Part shown: positions 1 through 32,632 of the stretch, piece by piece
How the letters are laid out: every line of letters begins with the position of its first letter
Numbering within the stretch: position 1 is the stretch's first letter
NCBI RefSeq assembly: GCF_000497125.1
Contig: NC_090597.1
Coordinates: 321,797 to 385,796 of the forward strand
DNA from: Spironucleus salmonicida
Taxonomy: Eukaryota
DNA length: 64,000 bases
Direction: 5' to 3'
Notes under the pieces: model-generated
The model's input: only the letters and a program-made list of their open reading frames with translations
Told to the model about the DNA's origin: nothing
Databases searched by the model: none
Position numbers and translations under genes: made by a program

Positions 1-1863
1 TGGGTTCAAGCCAGCCTTTGCATTAGCAACTCGTGGAAAAAAATGAGTTTGCACATCTACCTTAAGAGTTGCATACAGTACCTGAGTCGACACAACTTGT
101 AGAGAAACACTCAGCTCCGACCTTGCTAAACTTATTTGCACAGGATTCGCATTGTGAGCCGGAATATCCAGTGGAGCAGACGCATTTGTTCTTGGTGCAA
201 TTTCCGTGATTGTTGCAAATGATATTATCTTTTAGGCAAACGTCTGAGACGCATGTGCCGCTTACCAGAGTGAAGTCATTAGCGCAAGTTCCCGTTTTGC
301 ACTTTTATGCTGAATCTTGGCTACCGGAGCAAGCACAGGTGTTATCTTTGCAGGTCCCGTTCCCGCCGCAAATTAATTTATCGTCGCCAATGCATGCATT
401 TGTTATACATTTTTAATCTACCAAAGTGAAGCCCGTGAGACAATTGGTGCAGTCATTGTCGAAGTTTTCTTTGCACTTACAGGCTTTCGTAGTTAAATCG
501 CAGGTCCCGTTGTTGGCACAAATTACATCGTCCTTGAGGCACTGGGTGGCCGTGCAAACGTTCTTATCGCCAATTTTTACCATCTGTAGACCGTCTTCGC
601 AGGCGCCACATTTAGGCTAAAAGCCAGGACCGCACTTGCAGGCGTCATTCGTGCAGGTCCCGTTTCCGCTGCAAATCACACCAGAGTCAACACAAGCAGT
701 GGCAACGCAGTCTTCATTTATCAACTCTTTCCCTGCAGCACACGCGGAGCACTATTGTGCGGGATCCAAATTATTTCTGCACCTGCATTTATTTGAAGAG
801 CAGGTCCCCTTGTTGCTGCAAGTTGTTCTACCTGAAACGCAAGGGGTAGGGACACAAATTCCATCCAATAACGTGTTATTTGCCATACATTTAGAGCACT
901 GGTTCTAAGGATCAAAATTTTTGTGCACCAGCATTTATTTCCAGAGCAGGTACCATTACCGTTACAAATATTTTTCCCCGTTATACAAGAATTAGATACA
1001 CAAACTCCGTCAATAACGCTTAAACCGTCTTAACATGACGTACACTTAGTTTTTGGATCAAACTTTTTTTAACACTAACATTTATTTCCAGAGCAGGCCC
1101 CTATGTTGTTGCATATTGTTTTATTTACGACACAACCAGCCACCTTACAGGTCTTGACGCCGTCTTAGTCTATTTCAGCATAGCCTTCCACACATTCAGA
1201 GCACTATTTTGCCGGATCATACTTTTCTCTGCAGATACATTTTTTGTTTGCATCGCAGTGCCCGTCGTTATTGCAGACCTTTTCGCCGTTTACGCAGTTG
1301 TTGTTGATACAATAGTTAGCTAATTTCGTATACTCGGTATCGCAATTTTAGCATTAGCTGGCACTGTCATAGCCCTCAAAACATTGGCAAGTTCCCTTAT
1401 CGCAGGATCCTATATTGGCGCAAATCCTGCCATCGGCGCTAAGACAGCTCGCCTTTGTGCATCGTTATTTTCCTTAAATTTCGACAATTATATCACCTTC
1501 AGCGCATTGTGAGCATTTTGATGCAGGGTCAAAATTGTTGGCGCAGGAGCAAACACTATTAGTACAGCTTCCGTTGTCAGAGCAGATTTTTCCATCAATA
1601 AGGCATCCCGCGTACGAGCATACCTCATCCACTGGTTCTAGGCCATTCGCACAAGCTGAACACTTTTAAGCTGGATCTAAATTTTTGTCACAGTAGCAAG
1701 ACGTTTTACCGGCCTTGTTTGTAAGGCAAAGTCCCTATTCTGAGCATACCTTCTTATTAGAATCTATACATACGTCAGAATAGCATTCTTTGTATCCTTC
1801 TCTGTCTACAGCTTATACATAACCTGTTGGACATAATGAAGTCATTTTACTAAGTTGTGTCAT
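1..1863 (-). CDS. Cysteine-rich protein with EGF/tenascin-like repeats (3' end outside the window)
   Basis: Code-6 translation from ATG 1863 (or 1845): MTSLCPTGYVQAVDREGYKECYSDVC..., with repeated units such as ICSDNGSCTNSVCSCANNFDPASKCSQC. Frame not checked base by base to position 1. Confidence 0.85.
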
Positions 1864-2542
1864 ACAGATATGGTAAAGTTGTATAATATTAGTAAATAGA
1901 GAAACTTATTGTTAGATATATAGTTATATTATATAGAAATAAAGTATTATTAATATCAAAAACAGGGTATTTCATCAATTATGTATATTTGTATATAATA
2001 TGTTAATAATTTTCTTGCATACAATTTTAATGTGAAATCTAAAATATATGATTGACCTTCTATTATATTAATGAATTAGAAATTCATTTTTACTATGATC
2101 TAGTATGTCATATCTAATAATTCGTATAGTTCTTCGTTAACAATCCACATTACATATTTTTTAAAATGTTCAATATTAATCAGACTACTGCCATAAATTC
2201 ATTCAATTTTCTAGAAATAGAGTAACTTTAAATGAACTAAGGTAACATTAATATTATTTCGTGCATCAATATCTATTTAATGTGATATTTTGTAGTAAAA
2301 ATAACCATATTCAATTTCTAATATATAAAAATCAGTATATTTAATTATACAATAATTCCGCCTTTTGAAGTTTAAGTATAGAAAGTAAAATATATTTTTC
2401 CTAAAATATTAAGTCTAAGCTTTAATAATACGATTAAATAAATGGATACTTGTATTGATGTAAATAACGATTTTTTAACATCACAGTGTAGTATTAGTAA
2501 TTCCTACTATGAGAAACCATAGAATATATAGTGAAGTAGTAA

Positions 2543-2684
2543 GTAACCCATACCAAAAACAGGAACCAGTACTCTCCAGTTTCAAAACCGCCAAAGTCAT
2601 TTTTATGACCGCGTTGCGACCAGAGCCATGACTTTCCGTTGTTTAAACCGAAACCGGCCGAGCCCTACTTTTGGTACGGGTTGC
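2543..2684 (-). ncRNA. Candidate structured ncRNA (142-nt rod-like hairpin)
   Basis: Nested stems on the minus strand: GCAACCCGUACCAAAA/UUUUGGUAUGGGUUAC, CCGGUUUC/GAAACUGG, AAAGUCAU/AUGACUUU, UGGUCGC/GCGGUCA. Most non-Watson-Crick pairs are G-U on the minus strand. GC-richer than its flanks. Confidence 0.5.
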
Positions 2685-3299
2685 GTAATACTGCATAGTT
2701 CAAAAGTTCTGATGAAATTATAAAAGATTAAGGTGACTATAATCCTCACAAAGCAAGAGTTTTATAATGATTTTCTATACGCTCTATAAAATTAATTTAA
2801 AGTATTTCTTTACGGATTTTCGTGTCTAAATCAAAAGCTTTATCACGTTAATACGCACAATTTTTAAGCATAACATTTAGTATTATTATTAAACATAACC
2901 ACAAAGCATTTGAAATCTAAGTAGTAATATTGTGATTTTATTATAAAATTAGTCAGCTTCTACGCTTAAACTAATCACCCATATCCTTTTCATGCATTTA
3001 GTTGAATGATTCAAATAACACATTTGGTGCATAAATAACTAGGCGTGGTACAGTAGCCGCTATCTCTCCTCTGGCCGCTCTTTTTACCATGCCATTCTCA
3101 AAATGTTGACTTACCAGACCTAGGTTCCCGATATTATATTTAATATTATAGTCATCGCGAGGAGAAATGAAGTTATGCAGCAGCTCGGGCCCGCTCGACC
3201 GCCTCCCAGCATCCGTAAGCAGCACCCGGCTCGTTGCGTCGAGCCATGCTTTAGTCCGCTATCTATATAATCTTATGAGTAGAAAATGCTCCGCCCGGC

Positions 3300-4459
3300 T
3301 CAGTAGCTGAACGAGGCGGCGCGCTTCAGCCCCACTTTCGCCGCCATGCCGGCCCTGATCTTGACGAAAATCGTCACATGGGCCTGCCTGTTGTGCCACC
3401 TCAGAAACGGTACCGCGCGCAGCACATTGTTGAACACCAGCACGCCCAGGACGGTCACGACGAAGCCCGCGCACTTTAGCGGCGTGTACCTAGCCGACAC
3501 GGACTCGTAGCCGAACGAGGTGAGGAATATCCAGTTTGTGATGGACTTCAGTGTATTGAACGTAGAGCTGCTCGCTGCCGAGGTTCGGTTCGTGATTTCG
3601 GCGGCAGCGGCGTTGAGGAGGAGCGCGAAAACAGCGTACAGCGCGTGCATCAAGCCCTGCGTCGGCGATGAGCTCACCTGGTAGAGCCAGCCCCGCGAGT
3701 CTTCGAAGGGCGACTGCGGCGTGGTGGTCGAAAACGGGTTGACGACGACGTTCAGCACCGGGAGCAGGATCGCGCACAGCAGCACACCCCAGCCGCCCTG
3801 GTTACCGATCACCACCAGGCCGCTCGTCTGGACTCGCCGCAGGATCATCTCCTGCAACACGTAGTAGCTGGCCGACAGGAAGCAGCCCACGGCGGTGTAG
3901 AGCACGCCGAGGATGGCTTTCAGCGGAAAGTCAGACTAGTCGTTGGCCAGGTCCTCGCCGAGCGAAACTAGGACCCGCCTGCGAGTATAGCCAGCAACCC
4001 AAGACACTGGGGCAGGTCAAAATTGCGCGTGTAGTCCTTGAAGATCGGTAGCGATATGAGCGCAACGAAAATGGGTGTTAGCCTCCCCACTATGTTGTAT
4101 ACCTCAATGTTGGAGTAGAACTTCCCCAGATGAAAGATGGAGGATGCGATAAAATCGATGGCGGCCGGAATAATGAAATAGAGCGTGTGCCTCAGAAATT
4201 TGAAGTAAACCTTCGTCTCCTGCAGGGCGGGCTGCGGGGTCTTAAGCTGCCTCTTAACGAACTCGACCACCGCAAATACAGCGAGGCTCAGAAACTCCCC
4301 GATGAACATGAAGAGGACCAGCATGTATGGGTGGTTAAACGACTCACCTTCGCAGGTGGGGCACGTAGGCAGGACCTGCGACATGATCGTGTGCTGGAGC
4401 ACTTAGCAGGCAGATGAGGAAAGCAGAGACAGTGCTACTAATACGTAGATAAGCGGCAT
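3300..4459 (-). CDS. Multi-pass membrane transporter, SLC35F/nucleotide-sugar transporter (DMT) -like; one frameshift near 3975
   Basis: MPLIYVLVALSLLSSSACQ(TAA)VLQH...FNHPYMLVLFMFIGEFLSL...FIIPAAIDF...YYVLQEMIL...ending TGA at 3300-3302. About 10 hydrophobic segments. The two halves are offset by one base in a G run (GGCGGGTCC on the minus strand). Confidence 0.8.
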
Positions 4460-4951
4460 GCTTTTATGCGCTAAGGGGCCGAGCATCCTCTGAATACTAT
4501 TTTTGCAAGTTGCTGATTATTATGTTATATACTGCCTATCATACCATACCTAATATCCCTTATTCAATATATAGAGAACAATGTTAATTGCCAACTATAC
4601 AATTTTCCATGGGGTATTACTATACTGAAATAGAACTGAAAATTTTCTGGAACGAAATTTGTTTCGTATTGGTAGGAAAACTAAGTAAACGCAGAATTCT
4701 ATTTTGGACGTGGTTGGGAAAATCAAACCATACCTTCATTTACCAAGCTAGCACCTAGCTTGATGGCACCTGTTCTATCGCTTCGGCTCTGCTAAAAATA
4801 GAATAAACCCGCGCTTTATGTTTAGGCACGAATACCTCAGAATTTGGTAAACCACCTCTCTGCGCAATCCACAACTAAAGGTGCTATCTAGAGATCTTCA
4901 CATTCCTTTGGAATTATAGCATTATTATATAATTTATAGCTAGTAAAATAA

Positions 4952-5482
4952 TCAATGAAAATTGCCGAAGCCGCCGTTGCAGCCGCCTCCTCCCATGCCA
5001 TTTGACATTCCCGGGTTCATTCCATGGCCCATTCCCATTCCCATGTTTCCGCATCCCATGCCCATGCCTGGATTTGGCATCATCGGCCCACAGCCCATTC
5101 CGTGCATACCGCCGCCGTTCTGCATAAGCCCTGGGTTGCCGTGGAGCATCATTACCTAGCCGGCAAAGTCTTGGCATGACATCCTTGTGGGGTGGTCCAT
5201 ACGGCACTTGAAGCAGTACATGTAGACACCATAGCGGCTATGCATCTCCATGTTGCTAAAATACTGTTTGAACTGAGGGTTGTTTTTGTATTGTTGTACG
5301 ATCGGGAACACATCCATGCACTGGCCCTGGGGGTAACCCATTCCCATCTATTGCCCCATGCCCATACCCATAGGATGCCTCATGCCAATTTGCTAGTTCA
5401 TGCCCATATTTCCCATATGAAGGCCGGCGCCTCCGCTTACATGCGTAGAGCTTGTTACCATACCAGAACCTTCGCCTCCCAT
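4952..5482 (-). CDS. 176-aa Gly/Met/Pro/Asn-rich low-complexity protein with a central C-x2-C-x3-H-x5-C motif
   Basis: Single open frame in code 6 (three TAG read as Gln) from AAAATG to TGA, 531 nt. Core sequence YMYCFKCRMDHPTRMSCQDF, flanked by MGMG/NPGM repeats. Confidence 0.85.
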
Positions 5483-7020: not shown

Positions 7021-8785
7021 ATAAATATTTTACTCAAAATTATAATATCATAAAAATATATACATGTTCTCGAAAAATATTCTATACTTCTAAAACCTAG
7101 CTTTGATTAATTACAACTAGAATAGCTAATCAATGATAATTAAAAGATAATATGGCAATAATGTAATATATCTCGTTAACTTCTATAATCAGTCAAATCA
7201 GCGGTTGTAACCACAGATTAAAACTTGTCAATTTTCAAAATGTTACTGTACACTAAGGAAGAAGCAAAAAAGTATATTTTCAAAAGAATATTACTCGAAA
7301 TAGTCTAACGGGAGCTTGGCTGTGCTCAGCAACATTGGAATTTGAAACCTTAATGAGGGCTCACGGAATTAATGGCAGATACAAGTACAAGATGGGGTGT
7401 TAGAGTTGTTTCGTTAGACGGGTATTTATTGTAAAGGTAAAACAACCTCTTCACAGGAAAGAGTCAAATTACTGTTAGCACATTGTCATTCATTAGTTAC
7501 AAATGGAAATAGTGCAAACAATTATATAAAACTGGATATTATTCATTTTTATTCTATATATTATACAATAATATACAGTCAATAATAGAATGCATTAGAT
7601 TAATAAATAATTGCTGGTCAACCAATCTGAAATATACTATACTTTAGGCATAAATAATATGCATAATACGCTGCATCAAATTATATGTTCATTATAGTGT
7701 CTATAAAATATTGGACTATATTAATTTTACGATTCTTATTAATAGGAATATAGTTGTTAACTAATAAGATTAGCGTAATTTCTTGTAGCATGAAAATGGT
7801 AACAACTCATGATTTTTACGCTAATTATGGAAAGGCAAATAATGAAATGCAAGTTCCTTCTAAGATTCCGTTAGTTATGGATCATATGGCATGCTAAGCA
7901 ATGGAAGATATTATCTTACCTGCTTAGTAATACAGTTTGATATTTATGAATAACCAAGCTGAATTATATTGGTAGTAGTAGATGGTGTATTAATATTAAA
8001 TACATGGTTTACAATAACTAACATAAAGTACTCGTTTTGATAATCAAAGCCAATTTAGTGTATTGATTATGTGATCTGAGAATTCTGGCATAAGCTAATA
8101 TTTTATTGCTAGCATGCCCTGCTCCTAACAAAGTACCATCAGTGTCTACATGCACTAAAAGCTTAACAATAGGGAAACTGTATGCGATTACACTAAAACT
8201 ACTAAAATATCAATAAAATGTTGTAATTAGCAGCTATCTATTTAAGATACCTCTCAAAATAGAGTATTTCATATATGACCACTTTAAGATTATAACTTTA
8301 TATTTTAAAATATTAATACATATGGAATACAGTACTTTATATATTAATTATAGCCTTTCTGTTATCTTTAAATATTGATCTATCTGCATCTAACTTTAGG
8401 TTCACGTTACATACAAGTATAATTTTTAAATAAATCTTAATTGTGTATTTAAGTTAATTATTTTTTGATTCTCGCCATAAACTTTATTTACCCTAAATTA
8501 AAGTCTGTTATATTAAACTATTTCGGTTTCTAGATTCCATTTATCAAGTAAATATAAAGTTAAAATGTAATATTTATGTTTGTATATATTTATATATATA
8601 GGATTCACAATTATTGTTCTAAATATATATTTATAAATAGTAATATTAAGTTTACGAATTTATAATACTAACTCTACAATATCATATAACTGATATCTAA
8701 TTTTATTTTCATATTTATATTAAGTAACTAACTAATACTATAATTATTATTGAAGCACAATAGATATTTTTAGATAAACATGCTG

Positions 8786-8816
8786 ATTATTATTATTATT
8801 TTATTATTATTATTAT

Positions 8817-8849
<33 letters not shown>

Positions 8850-8886
8850 TATTTTTTTTTTTTTTTTTATTTTATTATTATTATTA

Positions 8887-8919
<33 letters not shown>

Positions 8920-8920
8920 A
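8786..8920 (+). repeat. (ATT)n / poly-T simple repeat
   Basis: Directly visible; lies about 130 bp upstream of the CRMP at 9054. Confidence 0.95.
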
Positions 8921-9053
8921 TATTTAATTTATATTTATTTCAAGACGACCCTAATTAGTGTCATTATTACTAATATAGATACTGAAAACGAGAAACTATT
9001 AATATGAAATTTAGCTTAAGTAAATTACACACGTCAAAAGCCACTCCACTATA

Positions 9054-10943
9054 ATGGCACAATTTATCTGCCCAGATAATCCTTGCCCAAGCGGTATGGT
9101 CTGCCCCAGTACAGCGCTCGGTACCACCAAGGCACAATGCGTAAAGTGCGGAGTATTTAATTGCGCTAAGTGCCTTCCCGATAATCCTGATATCTGCGTT
9201 TCCTGCATACAGGGAAGCATTTTAAAGGATGGATTTTGTCCCAGTTGCTCGCAAATGTGTGATGTTTGCGAAAGTGAGGTAGCCTGCAAAACTTGTAAGC
9301 AGGGAGCTTATCTTTCGGATCAAAAATGTGCATTTTGCCCTACTCGTTGCGGTTAATGCGACTCCTAGGGTGTTTGCTAAGCCTGCAAAGAAGGTTTCTT
9401 TTTAGATGCAAAAAAAGAATGTGAGTATTGTATGGATAATTGCAGTGTGTGTTTGGACAAAAAAACGTGCTAAACGTGCAAAATGGGATTTAGACTGTCT
9501 GGATCGCAGTGCGTTGCCTGCTCATCTGGATGTGATATCTGCACCGATGATAATACTTGCACAAAGTGTAATTAAGCATCGATTGCCGATAATAATTAAT
9601 GTATATCCTGTCCAAATAATTGCCTGACATGTAAAAAGCAAGGCCAGTGTGAGATATGTAAAGAAGGCCATTTTTTAGAAAATGGTGGATGTTCCCATGT
9701 GGTAAGCGTTGTCTTATCTGCGAATCTAAGAACAAATGTAAAGTCTGCTAGCCCCATTACAGTACATCAGCTGTCGTAGATAATGGTGATTGCACTTCTC
9801 TACATGCGATGATATTAATTAATGTGCAAAAAATTAATAATGTATAGATAGAAGTGGAGGATAGCATTGTCGTGTCTTAAGATAAAACTGTTCATCATGG
9901 ATATAGAACAAAGTGCATTTAGTGTGCACCGCATTTTAACCTTTTTGAAGGTTCCTGTGACCATTGCTCAGCCAACTGCGAGTACTGCGTCTCGAGCACA
10001 TATGCTCCAACTGCTTTGACTACCATTTGTGAATAACTAAAAAGTCTGCCAAACATGCTCAGGCGGGTGCCTGCACTGTATGAGCGAGAAGAAGTGCTAT
10101 GAATGCACCCCTGGCTATGAACTGCAGAAAGACGCATGCGTCAAAATTTTAGCTAACGAATGCTCGCCCTCCACCCCCTGCAAAAACGGAATGTTCTGCG
10201 AACACGTTAAAGGAGAAACGAAGTGCAAGGACTGTATGCTAGGATGCGACATTTGCACCAGCTCCCTAACCTGCAGCGCCTGCAAATCGAGCCTCATTTT
10301 CGAAAACGGCGCCTGCGTGGCGTGCCCCTTAAACTGCAAAACCTGCTCGGATTCGACGACCTGCACCGCCTGTTTGTACGACCTAGCGCTGTCCGAAAAC
10401 GGCAAATGCGTCAAGAACGAGTGCACGGTGCGCAATCAGTGCAAGAAAGCAGAATTTTGCGATATGGCGTCTTCTGGTAACACCTGCAAATCTTGTGCGC
10501 CAAATTGCGCGAATTGCGAAAGTTCAGAAAAGTGCAATTCCTGTCAAGAAGGCTTCTCTATAACGAAAGCGCCCAATGCGTTAAATCCAGTGCGCCGCCA
10601 ACAGGCCGTGCGGAACTGGCGAATTCTGCGACCCCAAGGGAGCTGCAAGTCCTGCAGTTCAAATTGCGCGGATTGCGAAAGTCAGAGAATTGCAATCCTG
10701 CATTAGCGGATTCGCTGCGAACGACAGCGAAAGTGCGTTTTGCAGAATAACAAAGCGGGCGGCGGCTACGTTATCGCTATAATTATCGCCGTTTTAATTG
10801 TGGTCGCGTGCGTTACGGGCGGTGCGATTTTCTTTATCGTGAAGAGGAAGAGAGATAGTGGAAGGGATTGCACAGAATGGCGACGAAGCGCGATGTTGCT
10901 GGTAGTTAGGATAAAGTTTCGGCGTTTTCCAGTGACTGAATGA
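9054..10943 (+). CDS. Cysteine-rich membrane protein (CXXC repeats, C-terminal TM); several frameshifts (pseudogene or assembly errors)
   Basis: MAQFICPDNPCPSGMVCP..., many CxxC, then TM YVIAIIIAVLIVVACVTGGAIFFIV and KRKR. Frame breaks near 9690 and between about 10570 and 10740. Confidence 0.85.
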
Positions 10944-12568
10944 GGTTAATTCGAGTAGTTGAAAATATCGTATAATAGGTTTAGTGGTAAGTAAGGTTTA
11001 GCAATTGGGGTTGTTAGAATGTATAAGATATTGGGCGTTAAATGATAGATTTATAATATTGTTAGATAACTAATATGGGCAGTAGCAAGTTGTAGATGAA
11101 AATATTTATAATTATTTTGGAAGGCGGGGTTTGAAGTAATAGATTGTGAGGAGTGGATTTAGAAGTTTAGGGGAAGTTTATGAGTGTGTGCTTCCTTTAC
11201 GTGAGCCACGTCTCACTGTTACTTTGATTTTAGCTGTTATTTAAGTTTTCAGTTAAAGTTGAAACAACGATGTAATGTATTTAGTCAGCAATAAGATACA
11301 AATATTCTCAATCTAAGAAATATTAATTAATTATGATTTTAGAGTGAGTGAAATCTCACATATTTTTCCATGAATACAATATAAATTATATGACTGATAT
11401 ACTTAGAAATTTAAAAAACAAATTCTTTCTTATAATGCAATATATACTATATATTGAAGGATATTTTCTTAATATGTTTGAACTTCTAGACATTAAATAA
11501 ATATCATACTTTTATTCTGCATCATAAATGAGCGGATATCATGTATGGACGTAAAACGGCATAAGATAACTTATGTGTGCAGTGTAAATCTCAACCAATA
11601 TTACTGGTAGGATAAGTTGGAAAAATGTCACATAATCTCTAAATTATGAGAACTAGTGTTAGCTGAAGCGATAATATTACAATATAATGGTTCGAAACAA
11701 AAAAATACGTGATCTTCTGAAAATTTAAATGTATAAAAGTCAGCTATTTTGGGTGAGCTATTTAAAATAATTGGATAAGATTGATATATATTATTTGCAT
11801 GAAGTTTATTTTAATAATATTTTGAGTACTGTACTTCACTGACTCTTTATTATAAGCTTATATTATCTTGCATTTTTTAATTAAATTTGTACTTATAAAT
11901 ACTAATATGCCAATATAAACCCTTTTACCGGCATAATAATTTTCAATAGTACTATGTAACTGACTACATATCACTAATTATCACTGTAACATGAATTTAT
12001 GATCCAATTTTGTGTTGCTACATTTCCTAATTTGCATTATATATTCTAAAACCCTGATTATGGATTCTATCAATTCAAGATGTGCATTCAATAATATTCT
12101 TATAAAATAGAGTAAGACTCTCAAACTTTAATATTTCAAAGTAATGAAAAATGTGATCACTAATTTTATATGATACTAAGAAACAAAAGATATAGGATAA
12201 ATACAAGTATTAGTATACGAAAGTAATTTTTAGTTTTTGGAGGTAACTATTAAATTACCTTGCACGGATATTAAACCACAAATGAATATATAATTAATAT
12301 CTACTTTATCCCCTTAAACGTTATTATTTATTAGAATCTTAGTGAAACTTGAAATAGTATCTAAAGGATAGCCATAATCCATTGGTAATAAATTTATATA
12401 AAAATTACTCTATCTTGTCACTTTAATATATACTTCTACATAACTCCGAGTAGGCTTCTTTGAAGCTTGCCTATAAACATCATAATAGTAATCGCTAGCA
12501 TATAAGAGAAGCTATCAAAGGCATATTATATAAAACAATACAGTTATTGGAAGATCATCATTTTAAAA

Positions 12569-14190
12569 ATGACCTCTAAACCATATTGTTCAGTGGGAAA
12601 CGATATCTGCTAGAAAGGCTATTTCTGCCCAGCAGAAGGTGTAATGCATGAGTAATGCTAAAGATGCTCAAGTGACATTAAGGTTGGCCAAGGATGCAAT
12701 TGTACAGCATTGACGAGTATTAGAAACTGCATGAAGTGCAGAGGTAAGCACTGCTCCGAATGTATACCTGGGTTCTTTACATAGCTTAATAAGTGCACAA
12801 GATGTAAAGAAGGATGCAAGACGTGCACCTCCTTGCGCAATTGCACTATGTGCGAGGATAACTACATATTTAACACCTCTAGTAAAATATGTACACCTAG
12901 ATGTATCACAAACGACGACTGTAGAAATATTTAAGGCCAGTACTGTGACTAGTAAACTCATATGTGCACACCCTGCGGTTCGTTCTGCTCAGCTTGTGTA
13001 TCATCTGATTTCTGCTATACCTGCACATCGACTTATCACACTCTAACCACCGCTGGTCTTTGCACCGCCGGGTGTACCTACCTTCAGGATGGTTAATACT
13101 GCAAAGATGGCAAGGCGGAGCCCTGCGCCGGAGGTATCGAATCAGCGTGCAAGTGTGGTTAGTATTAAAATTGTGCCACCTGCTCTTAGGACGGATACTG
13201 CACCTCTTGCCTAACAAATTATATGCAGGACATGTTTGGAGCCTGCTCTTAATGTGCATATGGCTACGAAATGAACGAGTCAATTTGCATTCCGATTCAG
13301 TTTACTCATTAAGCTTCTGGAGTATGCTCCTTAACTAGCTTAACATGCAGGGCCGGTTATTTCTGCCCAGCTAAAGATTACAATTTAGTGCAGTGTCTGC
13401 CCTGCAACAATAATATGGCCTACGGAGAATCATGCTACTGCTAAGACAGCATACCTACCAATAATTGTATTGAGTGTGCCGGTGGATAGTGTACCGGTCT
13501 TCTGTACGTGCATAACGACCATACGATGGCTGAAAATAATTGTCGTCCTGGATGCTAAATTTGTGATTACTACTAGAACTGTATTTAGTGTGACGAAACT
13601 CATTATATAGATTATTCAACTCTAATTTGTTATGAGAAATGCAATACTAATTAAGAATGCGCTGGACCAGAGCCAAGATACTGTGATCCAGATAGTATGA
13701 CATGCAGTAATGTTTGCTTGGTTGCTTGGCATGTGGTAACAAATATGAATGCTACAAATGCGACCCACTTCATTATGTCACCACTATAGCAGGATTTTGT
13801 GCCCCCAAATGTGATAATCTTCCAATAGGACATTACTGCAATAATGGTAAACCTGAGCCATGTGCTTAGGGAATAACATCTATGTGTAACTGTGGAACAT
13901 CATAAAATTGTGCCACTTGCAATTTTGAATGCAATACATGCGATTTATGTCTGACTAATGCAACAAATTATAATAATTAGTGCCTTACTAAGTTTGATTT
14001 AGACTAAATGTATCAGTAATCATAGCTTGTTGCCTAGAAAATAATGTTAAGTGATCCCTTAACTGCTAGAAACTACCTTGGACCAGCAGCTGCAGTTGTT
14101 ATTTTTACAGTCTGTATAGGTGTTGTATTGTATTTCGTTCAGAAAAGAGTCCGCAAGAACACCAAAGTTACTGCAACCGCAATTAACTGA
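12569..14190 (+). CDS. Cysteine-rich membrane protein; one frameshift near 13709
   Basis: MTSKPYCSVGNDICQKGYFCP..., CxxC and CxC motifs, TM PAAAVVIFTVCIGVVLYFV followed by QKRVRK, TGA at 14188-14190. Confidence 0.88.
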
Positions 14191-16150
14191 GATAATTAAT
14201 TCACTTTAAAACGTATAAGCGTACATAGTTAACTATAAATATTTCGTCAAGAGTAAAAATCACATAGTTATTAAACTTTAAAAGCTATATTATTAAGATA
14301 TTCTGCCATTATAAACATACAATAAACTTTTTATCTCGTATTAATTTACTATATCTGACAAGTATCCTAAGTAACTAGTAAGATTTAACTATTTTTTAAA
14401 AACTTACTTAGAAATAGATAATTACAATGATCTCAAAAATTACAAGTTTTATTATCTTATTATATAGAGTTAATACCTAAATAGAAGATATAATTTAGAA
14501 ATCAACGAAACTGCTTAATTTGCAATACATAGTATAATAATTTATAGAAACATAGCATAGATTAGGTATTTTTATAAGACTACCCAAGATGGTTTATTAA
14601 TGTTGATTTGTTTCAATAATAATATTATTAAGTTTATTGAATAATAATTGAATACATCCGTAATATTCATTGTATTTATTAATTAATTAAGTATACATAT
14701 GCGCAGAGATTTTTCTGTGTTAATGTCCAAGTATTTATTTTCAACTTGTAATTCCACTGTTAAATGCTAAAAATCTTATTTATATATTTCAATGCTAAAT
14801 AATAGCTTGGATTATTAGATATTTTTCATACTATAGAAATTCTTTAAATAATATTTAGAAAAATATTATAGCTTATCTTTCTTATTTAATATGCTTTATA
14901 TGATCATATAGTACTAATCACATATGTTAAAGTAAAATATGAATAGTTTCATTGTAAAATAGAATTAAAATATGAATAATTTTTGTATTGTAACAGATTA
15001 AGAACATCAATACGTACTGAATATATATTGATAATATTTAGACCAATATTATATCTAGAGTTGAAATAAATAATTGCTTCTTGTTTATCATATTTTTATG
15101 TTTTAGTAATTAAAGTTTATTTATATACTATCAAACTTGAACATAATTTAATGCTTTATTGTCAAGATTAGTAAATTCATCTTAATATTTCCTTAAAAAT
15201 TTATTTAGTTTAAATTATAATTATTATTTAGTAAATTATAATTATATAATTTTTTAGAAGTATATAAGCGTTAATGTATAACAATAATAAAACTACTAAA
15301 AATTGAAATCCACATTATCATTTCTAATAACTATTACCAAAAAAATTTAAATTTATACAATCCTTATGAAAATATCAAATATTTTCACGGAAACCCGAAT
15401 AGAACCATAAGTAATAGCAAGTATATTAATCTGTTTTTAGCAATTAATCACATGAACTTAATAAATTATAGTAGAAATAGGATGATATTTATTTTTTTAA
15501 GTCCTTGTTCTAATAGTATTGTAAGATATAAATTGATGTATCAGAAAATAAAAATCAATTACTAGGAGCTACATATTAGTTGAACTTCTAGATACCATAG
15601 TATATATAATGTTTATAAATCTTATTTTAAACAAACTTGCAATTTAGTAAAACAATAATATTTATATAAAAGCCTTTCAGCCATAGTAAAATTAACAGCT
15701 CATTCTAAATAGAAATAATGTTCATTTTTATTATAAAGCATATTATGTTTCCACTTATTTAATTTTTTAGTAAATTTAATTTAGTAGTACAGTAAATAAC
15801 CATATATTATGATTAATAAAATTTGTATAAAATTTTATAGTTTTCTTATTATCCAGAAGGTATGTATTAAGTGGGTTCAAAATATTAAAGTTATCTTCTA
15901 ATTATAGTTTTTATTATTTCTATCCCAATACTTTTCAAATTATTTTCACTGATTTCACTAATTTTTATAACCAGATAATTATTATTAAATTTTTTCTTAA
16001 AGTAAGATATCCAATTTATCTTTAGTTGAACCGTATTTTCTCTTAGTTCAATATAATCCTATTTTATTAACATATACTTTCCTTTAAACCAAATTTATCT
16101 ATATTCCATGATAGAATATTATAATAATTTTACCACTCCTTTTATTGTTC

Positions 16151-18624
16151 ATGGGCGCAGCCGGATCTTGCTCAGACGAGTCAAATAAGTGCGGTTCACC
16201 CTATTACTGCCCTCTCGACCACCATGAATCAACTGCATGTCTCCTGTGTAATCCAAGCCAGCCAGTCGGAACCTCCTGCCAATGCGGTAAAAAGTACACA
16301 ATCCACCCCAACTGCGCGGGCTGCAACGGCGAAGCCTGTATCGCTTGTACACAAAATTTCTTTCTACTAAATAGCAAGTGCGAAGCCTGCATCGCAAACT
16401 GCACGACCTGCAGCAGCAATACGACCTGCGACTCGTGTTTTGCTGGCTACTTTGCGAACGCCTCGAAAGTCTGCCAGAAGTGCTCAGAAAACTGCCAAAC
16501 ATGCAGCACCGAGACTAGCTGTCTAACATGCTTTCCGAATCAGTTCCTGACCCCTGAGAAATCCTGCCACTTCTGCGCCAAAAACTGCGAGAAGTGCCAG
16601 GGCTGACCGCTTGCGACGTCTGCAAGGACGGGTACTTTCCAGCGGCAGTGGGTTGTGAAAAGTGTGGTGAAGCGATGAAAATAGGTGATGAATGTCAGTG
16701 TGCTGCCGTTAAAATCGCCAATTGCGTGCAGTGCGCTGGTGCCAAGTGCGCGACCTGCAGGATGGGATACAAGCTCATTCTCGGTACCTGCGTGCCAGAC
16801 TAGTGTCAGGTGGATAAAAATTGCCAGATTTACGAGTTCTGCGACGTGAGTGCCACCAAACCCAACGCGTGCAGGTCGTGCTCCAAGCGGTGCAAAACTT
16901 GTTCAGGAGCCGATGACCACTGCACTTCATGCCAGGAGGGTCAGTTCCTCGCCGAAAACACCTGCCAGCCGTGCGATTTTGGCACACCGGCCGGTTTTTC
17001 CTGCAACTGCGGGACAATCATGGCCGCTAACTGTGGTAAGTGCTTAGATGACGCCTGTGCGAGCTGCATCGACGGGTTCATCATGCGTGCAGCGGTATGT
17101 GTTCCTTGCGCGTAGGACCAAATTCAGGCCGCAAGTTGCACATGTCATGGCCAGGTGATCGCAGGCTGCGTGTCGTGCAGCGCAAAAGGCTGTGACGCAT
17201 GCAAGCCAAATTTCAAGCTCATAGACAACGCCTGTCTGCCGAACGAATGCCAGAATACCGTAGACTGCAAAAGCGGCGAGTTCTGCCTGGAGAGCCCGGT
17301 GCAGGTGAACCACTGCGTATCGTGCGGCGAGAACTGTGCCGTGTGCCAGAACGCTGACATTTGCACGCGCTGCCAAAGTGGCTTCTTCAGAGATTCACAA
17401 AGCGCCTGCGCGCCCTGCGCACGCGATATTCAAATGGGTGGCGGCTGCCAGTGTGGGGAGCTCGAAATCAGCAACTGCGCAGAGTGCGGCGCGGACACCT
17501 GCAAAGCATGCAGGGATAAGTACGACCTGCGCGGCGGTGCCTGTATCGCAAACGAGTGCCAGGACGACTCGGAGTGCGGGGATGGGAATTTTTGCAGCAT
17601 CCGCGCATCAGGGCACCAGTGTGCTAAATGCGGCAAGAGCTGCCAATCGTGCAAAAAGAGCGCAACAAATTGTACCAGCTGCAACTCTGGGCAGAGCTTG
17701 ATCGGTGGAGTCTGCGACAGATGCCGTTTCGACAGCCCGGCAGGCACTGCGTGCAACTGCAGCGGGAAACTCGTGCCAAACTGCGGTTTCTGCGAGAAGC
17801 AAAACTGCTAATTTGCGCCAATAATTTTTTCCTTGACGGCAGCGTCTGCGCTCCGTGCAGCGATAACCGTCCGATTGGGAGCCTTTGCACCTGCTCTGGG
17901 CTGGACACTGAGAATTGCGCGCTTTGCGGTACAAATTCGTGCGCTAAATGCGTTGTCGGCAGCAAGATAATTGACGGAGAATGCAGGTCTGACGAGTGCG
18001 GGAACAGTAGAGTGTGCGAGGCAGGAAAGTACTGCTAGCAGTTTGTGGACAAAATTAATGTTTGTCTGGAATGTGATGTTAGTGCTAGACCTGCACTATG
18101 GTGGGTTCGTGCGATTTATGTTCATCTGGGTATTTTAAAACGGCGCAAAACTGCGTTCTGTGCGATAAAATTTAAAATGGGGAGTGTAACTGCGGTGAAA
18201 TGATGCTAAAGTCGTGTAGGATGTGCGAAAAAGATAAATGTATTTAGTGCGCAGTTGGAAATAGCGTGCGTGAAGGTGTTTGCGTCAGCTGTGCAGAACT
18301 GGTAGAGGGCGAAAAGTGTGATTGTGGACTCAAATAAATTAACTGCATCAAATGCGGTTAGGAAAATCAGTGCTCAGTATGCCATGATGGTCACATATGA
18401 TAAAAGGGAATGCATCAGTTGCGCCGACAATCCCCAGCTATGCGTAATAAAATTTCATAAATACAATTATTTTCATCGTCATAGGAATCTTAGGTGGGAT
18501 AGCCTTAATAGTCGGGGCTGCGGTATTTGTAATCATCGCTAGGAAACGGAAATCCCATGTTAATCCAGATTATGACACCACACTTTTAAATCAGAGCAAC
18601 AACTCGAGCAGCTAGTTATTTTGA
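16151..18624 (+). CDS. Cysteine-rich membrane protein; frameshifts near 16600, 17808, ~18095 and possibly later
   Basis: MGAAGSCSDESNKCGSPYYCP..., repeated GxxCxCG..NCxxC modules, TM IIFIVIGILGGIALIVGAAVFVIIA followed by RKRK, TGA at 18622-18624. Confidence 0.88.
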
Positions 18625-20187: not shown

Positions 20188-23100
20188 TCACTTTGCCATA
20201 TTGTGCTGGAAGCTGTATTTCTTAGGGCGCTTGGCGTAAAAGATGGACACGCCGGCTATTATGCCTACAGCGGCCACCGCAGCTACCACCATACCGGCTA
20301 TGTTCGCTATGAACAGCGACTCATTGCGCTATTCTTCTATCGGGACGCAGGCTTGCTCGACCATTTCAAAACCCTCGGCGCAGGAGTCGCATTAATCTTC
20401 CGTGCTCAACTTCCACTCCGGGGTGCAGGCGAAGCATTTCGTACCGCTGCAGTTTGCGCAGTTTAGCATACTGGCGCAGTTGCACGAACTTTTGCCGTTG
20501 CAAGCCTCGCAGGACTGGGAGGAACCGCACATTTCACCTACTAAGCAGTTATCGTCAGTCTTGCACATCACCTTGCAGACCTGATCGACCAGTACGTATC
20601 CGGTAAAGCAGCCTGCACACTTGTTCCCATCGCAGCTCGTGCACGTATCGAACTGGTTCCCCTCGCAGTTACAGAGATAGCCTGGCGATACATATTAGCA
20701 CAAAGAGCAGGAAGGGGACAAAATACAGGCATGCCCGGTGAGGCAGAATGACGAGTCCTTGGTGTTCTCGCAGACCCCCGTGAAGCCTGGAGGGCTCACT
20801 AGGCACCGCTTGTTGATCATCACCGACCCCGCCATGCAGGTGGCACATCCCTTGTTGTCTGCGGTGCAGGTGGCGCAGTTCGGCGCATTGCCGCAGTTGC
20901 ACTGGTTTTGGACCGCAGGGCACTATTTCGTCTCATTGGGGCCGCTGCAGTAGTGCCCCGCCGGAACAGGTTTGCTGCAAATCGGCACCGAGCAGGAGTT
21001 CTGAGAGTCGGGCCCGTACCCCGACAGGCAGCTGGAGCAGGTTCCGGCAGCACTGCACGCGACACAGTTTATCGAGTCGCCGCAGTTGCAGGCTTTGTCC
21101 TATTTTCCGCAGACGTTGCACTCGCTGGAGTTTTGATCGCAGTATTAGTTTACAGGGCAGTCAGAGGTGTTGACGCAGGTGACTTTGGGTTGGCAAAAGC
21201 CATTAACGAGCAGAAACCTTCCAGGCATGTCTGGCAGCTGTCTTGGTACGCCGAGCAGGTCTGGCAGTTTTTGGCCTCCGAGCATTTGCATTCCTTAACC
21301 GATGCGGTGGTGCAGAGCTCGCAGCTGGCTTCTTTATCGTCAGAAGGACAGAAGAAGCCGTTGAAGCAGGAGTTTGCTGGCCCGCATTTGTTAGGCTTGC
21401 ACTCGCCCTTGAGGAGCTCCAGCCAGCAATACAGAGCTTGCACTAATTATCTTAGCAGAAAATGCAGTTTTCGCGCATGGTTCCACCGCAGTTGCACGAC
21501 TTCCCACTCGTCAGCTGGTTGCATGGAAGGCATACCTCCCCGAACTAGCCATTGCAGAAAAACGAGTTGTTGCACCTCGAAGACTTGTTGCTTTATCGCA
21601 TATATTTTTAGTTTCATTAGTGATTTTAGCGCATTACAGAGTGGAAGGATTGAATACATGGCCGCTCGTGCACGTCTGGCAAGTGTTGGATAGAATTCCG
21701 CAGGTTTTACAGTTTTGTGCCGTTCCGCAGTTGCACGCTGCGTCTACCGCAATTGAGCATGGCTCGCACTTTGCGTTTGCTGCCGAGTCAGGCGGACAGT
21801 GGTGTTGGGAAGGCATTTTGCCGCTAAAAGATCATCCCCGCAGTTGTTTTCTACACAGGCCCCTTGTAATAGCTCAAACCCGGTAATACAGCTCGTGCAG
21901 CTTCCACTGCTGCATTTGTTACAGTTCTTGATGTCATCTCCGCTGCAGTGACAGAATTAGTTTATCTTAAGCTGACCACAGCTGACGCAAATGGTTCCAA
22001 AAGTACCATTACAGTAAAAGTCGTCATTACACAATGTTGATTTATCATTAGAATCACATATATTTCCCTTCAGACTACATTAATTCTTGTCATCTAATTC
22101 GTATCCGGCAATGCAGGAACCGCAGGAGTTACTGGTGCTACCGCAGGTTTGGCAGAAGTTGGCCCCGCATTAGCAGGCATTAGCGGATTTATCTGTGCAT
22201 AACTAGCAGTTAACCGTGCCGCTGCTCCCATCAGGGCAGTAATTGCCCAACGCGCAGGTGCTTGAGGGCCCGCCAGAATTGCAGGTGTTTGTCACGCAGA
22301 TGTTGTTGTACGGATAGTAGCCTTCAATGCAGGCCTCGCAGCCACATTCTCCGAATTACATTACTTACAATTTCGTAACAGCACACTACCGCATTTGCAG
22401 GCCTTACCTTTGTCCATTGAAACACAAGATACGCACGCGTCTCCGAAGTTTCCTTTGCAGAACTTGCCAGACATGCAAAGAGTGGAGCCATTGGCGAAGT
22501 CGCAGATATCGCCCTTCAAAACACATTGAGAAGTGCTCGCCTGCAAATCATATCCAGAAAAGCAGGACCCACAAGTATTTACTACCGTCCCGCACGTTTA
22601 ACAACTAGGGAGAAGCCCGCACTTGCATTCTTGCTGCTGATTATTGCATTGCTTGCAAACCTCGGTTCCCGATACTGCGCTATTCGAACAGTAGTACCCA
22701 TCAATGCAGTTTTGTGTGTTTTTGGGATCTCCGCACATATTGGGTACGCAAACTCCATCGATAGGCAGATATTTATCAATGCAAACTTCGCATTTATCCC
22801 CTTTGCATTACTTGCAGTTTTCTTGGAGCGTCAAGTTGCAATTGCAAAATTGACCCTCTGCAATATTCGCGCATAGTTTACAATCATCTCCAGGTTTCCA
22901 TTGCACATGAAACCTATATCACATGTAAAGGACTCCTATAAAGGGCTGCAAACATTAGACTTCGCTATGCAGCGCATTTTGTCGTTGAAATGAAACCTGG
23001 AAGACAGGTGCTGCACGTTTATTTCTCCAAATCGCAGGTTTCGCAGTTTTGCAGGTAAAAACACTAGCACGGCACCGTTTAACCCTTCACACAGGGTTCG

Positions 23101-24163
23101 CACGCTGCCATCCCCTGCGTCCACGCCGGGCAGGCATACTCATTAAGCATAAGCTCGTCTCGTTCGTACAATAGTTAGCGATGCAGTTGGTTCCAGTGCT
23201 AATTCGTGACATGAAAAACCCGTAACCACATTCATCACATTCTGCGTTTTGCACCTAATACAATTATAGAGCTTTCTACGTGGGTTACAGTGACATCCTT
23301 CGCTGAGATACATCGTGTCGCAAGATCGGCAAACCAGACCGCTTTCGTCGCAGTAGAATCCTTTTGTGCAGTTTGAACTCGTGGGGTTGTTTGGGTTACC
23401 GCCTGAAATACAAGTCTTCGGGTTCTAGCAACTTTTATAATCTTAATTGAAAACCGTTCCGAAAGTCAAACCTTGGGCACAGGTCCTGCAGCCAACTCCG
23501 CCAACGTCGCATACCTTACACCCCTATATTGTATCATACTCCTCACAATGGCATCGAACACCTGGGTCCGTACTCGTAGAACAGCTGTTACATTTACCGC
23601 CGCTACAATGGTATCCTACGTCACAGTTATTGCTGGCCTAGCAAGATTTTTGAACGATGGTGCTTTCGCATTTCCCATTTACCAAAATTAAGCCCCTGAT
23701 GCATTTTGAGCAGAAGTCGCCATCGCAGTTCTGGCATCCTGCTATGGCTTAACCGGCGCAGTTACAGCTTAATTAAATGTTTATGTCGTTGCACTTTTGG
23801 CATTTGGCACCAGACTATTGGGGACAGAAGTACTCGTGCGGGCAGACTGCCGAATCGTTGTTGCAGTTATCTTGGGAGAGAATACAACGATTGTTGGACA
23901 GAGTATAACCAGTTATGCACTTGGAGCACTAGATTCCGGTACACTCAGCACAGTTTTCTCGTAGGTTGTCTGCACAGTTGCACTTCTTTCCAGGGAGCAT
24001 GTTAACGTGACATTTTTTACACATCACGCCGTCTTTATAGTTAGGAAGAGGACAATATGAGTTAGTAGCACAGTCGAGTGAGTGGAGTTGCAGGTCTAGG
24101 TTTCTAGAGCAGTTTCCATAATAATTCTATGGTTCGGGCATTATATAAAATTAGAATAATCAT
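20188..24163 (-). CDS. Large cysteine-rich membrane protein (about 1300 aa) with multiple frame disruptions; possibly a pseudogene
   Basis: MIILILYNARTIELYGNCS..., repeated CNCGxxxNCxTC modules, TM IAGMVVAAVAAVGIIAGVSIFY followed by AKRPKK, ending AAG TGA at 20188. Confidence 0.82.
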
Positions 24164-25670: not shown

Positions 25671-26648
25671 ATGCCAACTTTTAACTTCGGGGCATCTACA
25701 ACCACTGGTCGTCGGCCTTCCAATGAGGACGCGCACACAATCACTCACCTGAATTCGAAGCTTCCCTGCCAATTCGTAGCTGTTTACGACGGCCACGGCG
25801 GCGCCTCAGCCGCCTGCTACGCGTCAACCACACTCCACACGATCCTCTAGGCCCAGAAAACGTTCCCAGACGACATCAAGAAGTCATTTATCACAGCTTT
25901 CACGACAACCGATAAAAACTACATTAAGCAGGAAAATTCGTCAGATATCTTCTCATCAGCAGGCTGCACCGCCTGCGCCTGCCTGCTGACTCCCACACAC
26001 GCGTATTTTGCGAACGCAGGAGACGCGCGCGCAATTATCTCTAAAAACGACCAAATCGTCCAAATAACGACCGACCACAAACCGTCGCTGCCGTCAGAAC
26101 GCGCCAGAATCGAGCAATTCGGCTCGTGCGTCGTTGAGCAGCCAGGCGACTGCCCGCGCGTTGCAGGGATGCTAGCAGTCTCACGCGCGATCGGAGACGC
26201 CCCGTTTAAGGGCTGCGGCGTCGTGGCGCTCCCAGACGTCTTTTCAGAGGAGCTGCAAGGCGTCGATTTCATCGTTTTGGCCTGCGACGGCGTCTGGGAC
26301 GTCCTGACGAACGAAGAAGTGCAGCAAATCGTGAAAATTTGCCTCAAAATGCCCGGAAATGCGAGTTCCGTGAGAGAGAAAATCTTGAAATAAGGAGTGG
26401 AAAAACTGCTCGAATCGACGAATTTCAGGGACAATGCGTGCAGGGAGGCAGAGCAAATTCTGGTGCAGCTCGCTGAGAGCGTTTCAGCGCCTGCGAACGA
26501 TTTGACGTGCAATTTGAAGACCGAAATCGAGAAAATGAGCCCCGCACATCTCGCGAGGATGATTTGCAAGGTCGCTGTGTGCGTTGGGAGCGATGACAAT
26601 ATCAGCTGCGTCGTTGGCGTCGAAAGAGCGGTTTACGAGAAAAAGTGA
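25671..26648 (+). CDS. Protein phosphatase 2C (PPM family), 325 aa
   Basis: Motifs GRRPSNED, VYDGHGG, GCTA, ANAGDAR, DHKP..ER.RI, LAVSRAIGD, LACDGVWDV, GSDDNIS. Open in code 6 with in-frame TAG (25848) and TAA (26391). Confidence 0.97.
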
Positions 26649-30269: not shown

Positions 30270-30745
30270 TTTATATTAGTTATTTAAATTATATTTACAA
30301 TAATTATAATAAATAGTGTATTTTATATTTTTAGGTTTTCCAATTTAGTTATGCTCGATTACTATTTAATAATAATATGTTAATTTAGATCACAATATTT
30401 TAGTAGTATATATTACTTAAATTATTAAATAGAAACTCTTAAAATGTGGTGTACTCTAATGATAATATTTTAATATATTATGTTTATGTATTCATACATA
30501 AATTGATGAAAAATTTAATAATATTGTGCATATTCCTTATTAAACAAGACTTATATTAATAATAGTATTTCCTAAAATAGAATAATATTTTAAATATTTA
30601 AATAAGATACCTTTCTATTATTACATTACTCATTACAAATTTATTCATCTTATAATATAATTATAAAATATAAATTAAATAATTATCATTAATTTATCGT
30701 ATTTAATATTATTTAAAATTAATTTTGTTTGCTGATCTTGATAAT

Positions 30746-30914
<169 letters not shown>

Positions 30915-31726
30915 ATTAACTAATTTGTTTTAACACATAGCGCACGCCAAAATATTTATGTCTCAGCAAAAATTTTACTAAATTTACTATTTGCAAACTA
31001 ATTTACTGACAAACCACATAATAACCTATACATATATTTTATGCACTACATAGTTATTTTATGTATAAATTCTGGCGATAGATCATATCAATCCGTAACC
31101 TCACGTTTAATATTAATTTTATCAAAATTTCCCGTTTTACCTCTTTGTAAACCCACTTTTTCGCCCTAATACTAAAAACTAAAAACCTCCAATAATAGAA
31201 ACTACCCCATTACGTATTTTACACTCTTTTTCACCCTAATTTACCTTTTGAGAGCATTTTACATCACTAAAATCATAATTCTCAATATGCTCCACCCAAA
31301 AGCTCTAATTTTCTCTTAGCGTATACCTTTCACCTCCTTCTATAAACTCTTCGCCAGCCTTTAGCCCACCAACCTCACAACAATTTATCTTTCCACATTT
31401 TTATTCTATAAAAAATAACAATTATATATCATATAATAATCATATAACTGCGCATTTTTACCTTTCCTAATTCAAATTTTCAAATTTTTTTTCTCCCAGA
31501 ATCAACCACACACGCCCATTTGCAGCACTACGTGCTTAACCCAAATTAGCTCATTTTCGTCTGACGCAAAATTCTGCAAATGCCGTAATCCCCCTTAATC
31601 CTGAAACTGAAACTCACCGCAATTCGCGCTTTTAGAAACTGAGCATTTCCGCTCGCAAAATTTGCATCTGAAAGGCTGTTTCCAGTGCCGTGAAAACGCT
31701 ATTTGTGGTATGTTTATTTTGCAAAA

Positions 31727-32363
31727 AATGATGTTCTAGAATTAATTATTAGGAAGGATGATGCGTTTCTGAGTGAAAGAAATGGTAGTTTGGCGGTTTC
31801 TGAATGTGATATAATGAGAGCATCTACGTATAATAATGATGTTCTAGAATTAATTATTAGGAAGGATGATGCGTTTCTGAGTGAAAGAAATGGCAGTTTA
31901 GCGGTTTCTGAATGTGATATAATGATCGCATCTACGTATAATAATGATGTTCTAGAATTAATTATTAGGAAGGATGATGCGTTTCTGAGTGAAAGAAATG
32001 GTAGTTTGGCGGTTTCTGAATGTGATATAATGATCGCATCTACGTATAATAATGATGTTCTAGAATTAATTATTAGGAAGGATGATGCGTTTCTGAGTGA
32101 AAGAAATGGTAGTTTGGCGGTTTCTGAATGTGATATAATGAGAGCATCTACGTATAATAATGATGTTCTAGAATTAATTATTAGGAAGGATGATGCGTTT
32201 CTGAGTGAAAGAAATGGCAGTTTAGCGGTTTCTGAATGTGATATAATGAGAGCATCTACGTATAATAATGATGTTCTAGAATTAATTATTAGGAAGGATG
32301 ATGCGTTTCTGAGTGAAAGAAATGGCAGTTTAGCGGTTTCTGAATGTGATATAATGAGAGCAT
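31727..32363. repeat. Tandem repeat, 108-bp unit, about 5.9 copies
   Basis: Unit begins AATGATGTTCTAGAATTAATTATTAGG at 31727, 31835, 31943, 32051, 32159 and 32267. Only four variable positions. Confidence 0.97.
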
Positions 32364-32632
32364 TTTTTTCAGCGTTAATTGCAACTTTAGGTGTTACGTT
32401 TGGTCAAGATTTTGGCAATAACATTTGCCGATTGGGGGTTATTTTATATGTGTGTAATATGTCAGGTTCAGATGATTTAGCGATGTGGTTACGTTATATC
32501 AGTTTATTCTTATGCAAAACAGCGCTAGATACGATTTCGAGGATAGTGCGTTGGAGATTTTAATCATAATTAATTTGAATTTATATTTGAATTCGGTTTT
32601 CCGTTTTAAAATAAAGCGATATTAAAATTGAA

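Follow-up and report, generated by a model that had tools for sequence, protein, structure and literature searches.

We describe an imperfect inverted repeat of 164 bp that occupies an AT-rich spacer flanked by minus-strand genes in DNA probably from a hexamitine diplomonad, and we tentatively interpret it, from its sequence, as a decayed foldback or MITE-like inverted-repeat DNA element, for which the relic of a small non-autonomous transposon is the likeliest origin. The window analysed here is the whole 64-kb stretch of DNA in which the repeat lies, and all coordinates refer to it. The repeat, its extent, its base composition and its uniqueness within the window are direct observations, as is the weakness of the strand bias in its G-U pairing, a bias that had led a first-pass annotation to propose a functional minus-strand RNA. 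Such an RNA is a possible but less likely account of the locus.

Genomic context and genetic code

The hairpin occupies a spacer of about 1.1 kb flanked by two genes on the minus strand (Table 1). The first-pass annotation had placed it between two minus-strand genes and upstream of a cysteine-rich protein gene, and this placement is borne out when TAA and TAG are read as glutamine, the reading under which the neighbours extend over 3303-4486 and 2-1863. The assignment of the upstream neighbour to a transporter family is a lead only. Both neighbours change frame at homopolymer runs, which represent either pseudogene lesions or indel errors of long-read assembly. A cysteine-rich protein used as the query of an initial homology search returned no match.

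The choice of genetic code follows from the window itself. Long cysteine-rich frames open only with NCBI table 6 (TAA, TAG = Gln), and the standard code and table 4 were dropped in its favour. Genes that are visible only under table 6 include those at 25671-26645 (+), 54090-56765 (-) and 62015-63712 (+). In a gene for a PP2C phosphatase, TAA and TAG each occur once in frame, and the product is 100% identical to a database protein; among named species, this phosphatase has its best relatives in Hexamita inflata (46% identity), followed by Giardia with 41% and Spironucleus salmonicida with 36%. From this context we infer that the DNA is eukaryotic and comes from a hexamitine diplomonad.

The window holds at least ten open reading frames (ORFs) for cysteine-rich proteins with VSP/EGF/furin-like repeats and can be described as a cluster of surface-protein-like genes; such ORFs lie at 2-1863, 10020-10940, 12464-13951, 16112-18195, 20191-24159, 48770-50291, 54090-56765 and 62015-63712. 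One of the cysteine-rich proteins passes the Pfam VSP cut-off (49.7 bits against 31.4), and several end in a membrane helix followed by a short basic tail. Among other features, an ORF at 4952-5482 (-) encodes a low-complexity protein rich in Met, Gly and Asn that belongs to no Pfam family. A 108-nt tandem repeat is present in six copies at 31616-32455, the inner ones 97-98% identical, and is overlapped by an ORF (31703-32563) whose Pfam matches look like repeat artefacts. Microsatellites of ATT/TAT trinucleotides and poly-T are found at 30734-30924 and 8785-8930.

Structure and extent of the inverted repeat

A nested inverted repeat in intergenic DNA had been claimed at 2543-2684. Inspection of the sequence finds an imperfect, nested and intergenic repeat at these positions, and it folds strongly on both strands. 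The repeat also outgrows its first delimitation: an inverted-repeat search and the folding of 2520-2707 add 11 nt on each side, giving the full length of 164 bp (2532-2695), with terminal arms of 32 nt (2532-2563 and 2664-2695) that are 78% complementary.

Folded as RNA, the minus strand of 2543-2684 reaches -55.3 kcal/mol (z -5.48) and the plus strand -40.1 kcal/mol (z -3.45), and in neither case was any of 200 dinucleotide shuffles as stable. The strands are therefore of unequal stability, and equal stability was one of the outcomes that the first-pass annotation had named as evidence against an RNA. With DNA parameters the minus strand folds at -27.3 (z -4.66) and the plus strand at -18.3 (z -2.06), a value equalled by 6 of 200 shuffles. 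The minimum free energy (MFE) structure contains 52 pairs on the minus strand, 8 of them G-U, and 47 pairs on the plus strand, 2 of them G-U. From its base, the minus-strand rod consists of an uninterrupted helix of 19 bp, helices of 4, 9 and 4 bp, a single pair, a perfect helix of 8 bp and an apical helix of 7 bp. Three of the basal helix's minus-strand pairs are G-U, and on the plus strand these positions are A.C mismatches. The hairpin-forming inverted repeat is genuine and beyond chance.

Table 1. Coordinates of the inverted repeat, its parts, its flanks and the neighbouring genes in the window
Feature	Positions	Strand	Remarks
Downstream neighbour, gene for a cysteine-rich EGF/VSP-like repeat protein	2..1863	-	TAA/TAG read as Gln; frame change at ~922-930, A5T4 run
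TAG, left flank, possible 3-bp target-site duplication	2529..2531	no strand	Identical to right flank
Full imperfect inverted repeat	2532..2695	no strand	Outer 11 nt AT-rich, 8/11 complementary; TG...CA termini
Hairpin as first noted	2543..2684	-	52-bp rod, 8 G-U, -55.3 kcal/mol
Basal 19-bp uninterrupted helix, 3' half	2545..2563	-	Pairs with 2664-2682
Perfect 8-bp Watson-Crick helix, one half	2593..2600	no strand	Pairs with 2628-2635
Apical 7-bp helix	2606..2622	-	2 G-U; closes the 3-nt loop 2613-2615
Perfect 8-bp Watson-Crick helix, other half	2628..2635	no strand	Pairs with 2593-2600
Basal 19-bp helix, 5' half	2664..2682	-	Pairs with 2545-2563
TAG, right flank	2696..2698	no strand	Directly adjoins the repeat
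Upstream neighbour, gene for a DMT/nucleotide-sugar-transporter-like membrane protein	3303..4486	-	Family lead only; frame change at ~3970, G run

The composition of the element sets it apart from its surroundings. It has 49% GC, against 21% in the left flank and 26% in the right, and it is the sole isolated G+C island of more than 115 nt in AT-rich spacer of the window; the other small G+C islands that were folded gave weak structure. When the 64 kb was scanned in 2282 windows of 142 nt, 2543-2684 stood out most on the minus strand, with a GC-corrected folding residual larger than any other (z -3.2).

The scan of the plus strand in the same 142-nt windows is dominated by a self-pairing ATTAGT microsatellite. 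This interrupted hexamer array extends over about 5.4 kb (32400-37900) and shows a GC skew of up to +1.0, i.e. a plus strand without C; its plus-strand RNA pairs strongly with itself, at -69 kcal/mol per 142 nt. Three further segments of the window also fold. The minus strand of 52725-52866 (32% G+C) forms a multi-branched structure of -39.9 kcal/mol (z -3.99, 0 of 200 shuffles), its plus strand being far weaker; Rfam gives noise only at this place, which we regard as a second candidate structured RNA. A small G+C island at 11138-11239 (+) forms a hairpin of about 75 nt at -27.9 kcal/mol (z -2.57, 2 of 200 shuffles), and its minus strand is weak. Antisense to a cysteine-rich gene, 16465-16606 (-) folds at -56.5 kcal/mol (z -3.5) against a z of -1.25 on the sense strand, indicating that comparable gaps between strands occur in coding DNA here too.

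Strand asymmetry of G-U pairing

The case for a minus-strand RNA made in the first-pass annotation was built on the distribution of non-Watson-Crick positions, of which some 8-9 were counted as A-C on the plus strand, and hence G-U on the minus strand, and one or two as G-U on the plus strand. These counts are about right. Setting the 5' arm against the reverse-complemented 3' arm yields 70 columns with 44 matches, 14 transition mismatches, 11 transversions and 1 gap; eleven of the transition mismatches read A.C on the plus strand and hence pair as G-U on the minus strand, whereas three pair as G-U on the plus strand, in line with the 8 versus 2 G-U pairs of the MFE structures. The two-sided binomial probability of this 11:3 split is 0.057. 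The accompanying premise, that a decaying palindrome should show no strand bias, holds in expectation only, and with 14 informative columns split in this way the argument carries less weight than it was given.

As a strand-symmetric null model, the two bases of each mismatched column were reassigned to the arms at random. The strands then differed by 15.2 kcal/mol or more, the gap observed, in 7.8% of one set of 600 randomisations and in 6.4% of another set of 1500. In 32% of the larger set, the more stable strand did at least as well as -55.3 kcal/mol (P=0.32). The energy of the better strand is thus ordinary, so that what is odd about the locus is a poor plus strand and not a good minus strand. 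Regional mutational strand asymmetry was considered as a cause of the bias and ruled out: the flanks are free of skew (GC 0.01 and AT 0.00 in the left flank) and such an asymmetry therefore does not account for it. A G-U strand asymmetry does exist in the element, but it is marginal (P about 0.06).

Searches for related families and further copies

No known RNA family was recognised at the locus. The first-pass annotation had been unable to recognise motifs of SRP, RNase P/MRP, snRNA or SECIS, and Rfam 15, searched with the whole window, likewise gives no family at gathering score. At E values of up to 10, the regions 2300-2950 and 2525-2702 yield sub-threshold noise only. The best scores over 2525-2702 are those of mir-427 (17.2 bits, cut-off 70), Atu_C4 (14.0, cut-off 80) and mir-3688 (13.3, cut-off 84), so that a match to a known family, which would have removed any novelty, is not seen. 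ARAGORN reports neither tRNA nor tmRNA. The Giardia ncRNA 3'-end motif CCTTYNHTHAA has no match on either strand of 2300-2950; PMC6679479 describes this motif as not conserved in Spironucleus.

Several particular RNA classes were tried and set aside. A U5 snRNA was rejected on the absence of the conserved, U-rich, 11-nt loop I motif UGCCUUUUACY (as given in PMC6679479), the apical loop of the element being 3 nt in a G+C stem, and SECIS, SRP, Sm-site, H/ACA and C/D readings were dropped after inspection by eye. A plus-strand GTGTAGTA at about 2489-2496, in the stretch 2487-2500 and 45 nt upstream of the hairpin, resembles the branch-point-binding stretch of U2 snRNA; it was discarded as U2-like, having no match to a U2 model and resembling ATTAGT low complexity.

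Copies of the element were sought at the nucleotide and protein levels. Within the 64-kb window, blastn with word size 7 finds no second copy, and a covariance model of the hairpin returns just two matches, which are the locus itself on each strand. Among prokaryotes, 185,579 genomes of bacteria and archaea were searched with a gapped pattern that combines the two conserved termini; none matched, a result that excludes close prokaryotic relatives only. Translation of the element in a minus frame gave no candidate in a set of 5.8 billion proteins. A 55-aa translation in a plus frame gave three matches among 1.84 billion representatives (E 2.5e-6 to 1e-4), which were rejected as copies of the element: they are translations of tandem repeats, with 26-43% identity recurring 4-9 times. 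In the literature, no link between Spironucleus, Hexamita or Trepomonas and miniature inverted-repeat or foldback elements was found among the matches listed, and the eight files of the Hexamita inflata supplement (PMC11787283) contain intron coordinates and mention neither MITE nor hairpin.

Interpretation of the element

The explanation we favour, although with less than even confidence, is that of a decayed foldback or MITE-like element. A non-autonomous element of about 164 bp would have inserted into the AT-rich spacer between the two minus-strand genes, a transposase having bound both terminal inverted repeats and duplicated the 3-bp target TAG. Drift through AT-biased substitution would then have reduced the arms to about 63% identity (44/70 columns). 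The ability to fold would be a by-product of the repeat, and the minus-strand excess of G-U pairs would be sampling noise in 14 informative columns. The mobility, age and neutrality that this account ascribes to the element are what we infer from the features that follow.

The architecture of the repeat is that of a MITE or foldback element in having terminal inverted repeats, a length of 164 bp and reading frames across it that are short or intergenic in composition. The repeat runs into AT-rich sequence and then ends sharply at TG...CA, and these ends, together with the TAG on either side, are a hint that a transposon inserted here. For a fixed boundary, chance gives such 3-nt identity at 3.2% of the 23561 AT-rich positions examined, and the TAG boundary was picked after the repeat had been seen. 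Pairing is strongest at the termini, where the basal 21 columns carry four mismatches, all of them transitions, and most transversions fall in the middle of the element; such a pattern would follow if function had resided in the ends. The divergence between the arms also has a direction, in that 23 of the 25 mismatch columns set a G/C base against an A/T base, which fits the AT-biased decay of a GC-richer palindrome. By our rough estimate, divergence of the arms to the extent seen here would bring a perfect palindrome from 60% GC down to about 49%, so that the G+C island does not by itself demand selection. The 11 transversion mismatches, which break the helix on either strand and have been tolerated, favour a MITE-like relic over an RNA, as does the absence of a matching Rfam family.

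Comparison with Stowaway- and Tourist-like MITEs shows agreement in small size, non-coding content, inverted termini, the potential to form a hairpin over the full length, intergenic position, sharp ends and identical short flanks. The element differs from them in having no further copies in the 64-kb window, in its atypical TAG flank and in arms that are only about 63% identical, and it could not be placed in a superfamily. The usual targets of the common MITE superfamilies are TWA or TA, unlike TAG. Other observations also weigh against a relic: no transposase gene is present in the window (searching 50 ORFs against Pfam returned the VSP, EGF and PP2C families only), the 11:3 bias comes without skew in the flanks, and the element is a 49% GC island and the top GC-corrected minus-strand folder of 2282 windows. 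Two weak, post-hoc signals oppose each other, the G-U bias (P about 0.06) pointing to RNA and the TAG flanks (P about 0.03) to insertion. We rank a transposon relic above a minus-strand RNA, and the latter above a palindrome that never moved, on the ground that inverted-repeat elements are common in repeat-rich genomes. The Hexamita inflata genome, the only large one published for this clade, is reported in PMC11787283 to have 33.3% G+C, 34% interspersed repeats and 2676 DNA transposons.

Alternative explanations

The foremost competitor of a transposon relic is a gene for a structured RNA on the minus strand, which would encode either a Dicer-cut hairpin (a miRNA-like or hairpin-RNA precursor) or a lineage-specific ncRNA, might derive from a mobile repeat, and would be transcribed either independently or as a read-through product of the minus-strand gene upstream. 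We put it at well below even chances. Its evidence begins with the folding: the minus strand is more stable than the plus strand by 15.2 kcal/mol, it carries the larger number of G-U pairs (8 vs 2 in the MFE structures, and 11 vs 3 transition columns, with no skew in the flanks to explain them), and it is the best GC-corrected minus-strand folder among the 2282 windows, set as a GC island in an AT-rich spacer. This strand is also the one common to both neighbouring genes. A stable imperfect stem-loop, as a miRNA-like precursor should have, is present on it (-55.3 kcal/mol, z -5.48, 52 pairs), with an unbroken basal helix of 19 bp in a stem of about 52 bp overall. RNase III enzymes accept the geometry of a 19-bp unbroken helix within a stem of about 52 bp. 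The element resembles hairpin-RNA and miRNA-like precursors in its long imperfect stem, with G-U pairs essentially confined to one strand. In the related Giardia, Dicer and Argonaute are functional and miRNA-like RNAs are produced (PMC2583053), and the imperfect stem of the element is like a Dicer-dependent small-RNA precursor of that organism. The known Giardia examples are snoRNA-derived, unlike an intergenic rod. Several housekeeping snRNAs of Spironucleus are, according to PMC6679479, still unidentified on account of their high divergence.

The same data temper an RNA gene at several points. The strand bias on which it draws is marginal (P 0.057 to 0.078), the minus-strand energy matches that of the same mismatches in random orientation (P=0.32), 11 helix-breaking transversions are tolerated, and the Rfam miRNA-precursor models score far below their cut-offs (13-17 bits against 70-84). 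In a search for target complementarity, 22-mers of the hairpin match the rest of the window at 17 of 22 positions at best, and eight shuffles give 17-18. Of the functional minus-strand ncRNA proposed in the first-pass annotation, what stands is the inequality of the strands and the lack of an Rfam family; marginal bias, tolerated transversions and transposon-like ends count against it. The more specific proposal, of a Dicer-processed intergenic hairpin that perhaps targets the cysteine-rich surface-protein family or of a rod-shaped stand-in for a missing housekeeping RNA, seems to us unlikely, and slightly more so than a minus-strand RNA in general. A literature search found neither such a hairpin nor such a stand-in described for hexamitine diplomonads.

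Origin as DNA without transposition, by a local inverted duplication or as a cruciform-forming palindrome (for instance a by-product of repair or replication) with no role as RNA, is improbable, though several observations are in keeping with it. The repeat is single-copy within the 64-kb window and has no match in bacterial or archaeal genomes, its single-stranded DNA folds on both strands, and the divergence of its arms fits neutral AT-biased decay. Yet blastn finds no sequence in the window from which the duplication could have arisen, and the 11:3 strand bias tells against this origin as it does against a transposon relic. Sharp TG...CA ends and identical 3-nt flanks suggest insertion over duplication in place.

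Far less probable still is that the hairpin lies inside a structured, diplomonad-type spliceosomal intron, where it would unite the 5' splice site with the fused branch-point/3' splice site. Stem-loops of this kind occur within the long introns of Spironucleus and Giardia, and the 5' splice-site consensus of S. vortens is GTAAGTY (Hudson et al. 2019, PMC6679479). The element recalls such stem-loops in its stable hairpin with GTAAGT at the plus-strand foot (2539-2544), and ...CATAG follows the repeat at 2694-2698; GTAAGT is moreover scarce in the 64 kb, where it occurs 14 times on the plus strand and 16 times on the minus strand. The plus-strand GTAAGTA at 2539-2545 agrees with GTAAGTY at 6 of 7 positions, and the minus strand offers upstream only GTATTAC, the 5' consensus being GTAAGTY or GTATGTT. 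This GTAAGT lies, however, within a GTA-rich low-complexity stretch like the ATTAGT microsatellite, and the extended helix would bury it as a 5' splice site. The fused branch-point/3' splice-site consensus, RCTAACAARHTAG or VCTRACACRCAG in PMC6679479, is absent by eye from either strand up to 80 nt away from the hairpin, and RCTAACAARHTAG is not found downstream on either strand. About 22 nt would be left unpaired, against the 40-42 nt reported in the same source, and the element is much longer than the diplomonad introns of 40-67 nt given there. In the closest published genome, introns measure about 43 nt, judging by an entry in Supplementary Table 3 of PMC11787283. The flanks, at 21-26% GC, have non-coding composition, and there is neither a plus-strand gene nearby nor an interrupted reading frame.

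Implications

As a transposon relic, the reading we prefer, the element would be nothing unusual in a protist genome rich in repeats, and its sole importance would be as a warning against putting much trust in the strand distribution of G-U pairs counted in one copy. A minus-strand hairpin RNA, if that reading were true, would be the first intergenic small-RNA precursor or a new structured ncRNA in the Hexamita/Spironucleus branch, where even core snRNAs are still missing according to PMC6679479, and it would offer a handle on RNA-based control of the adjoining families of cysteine-rich surface proteins.
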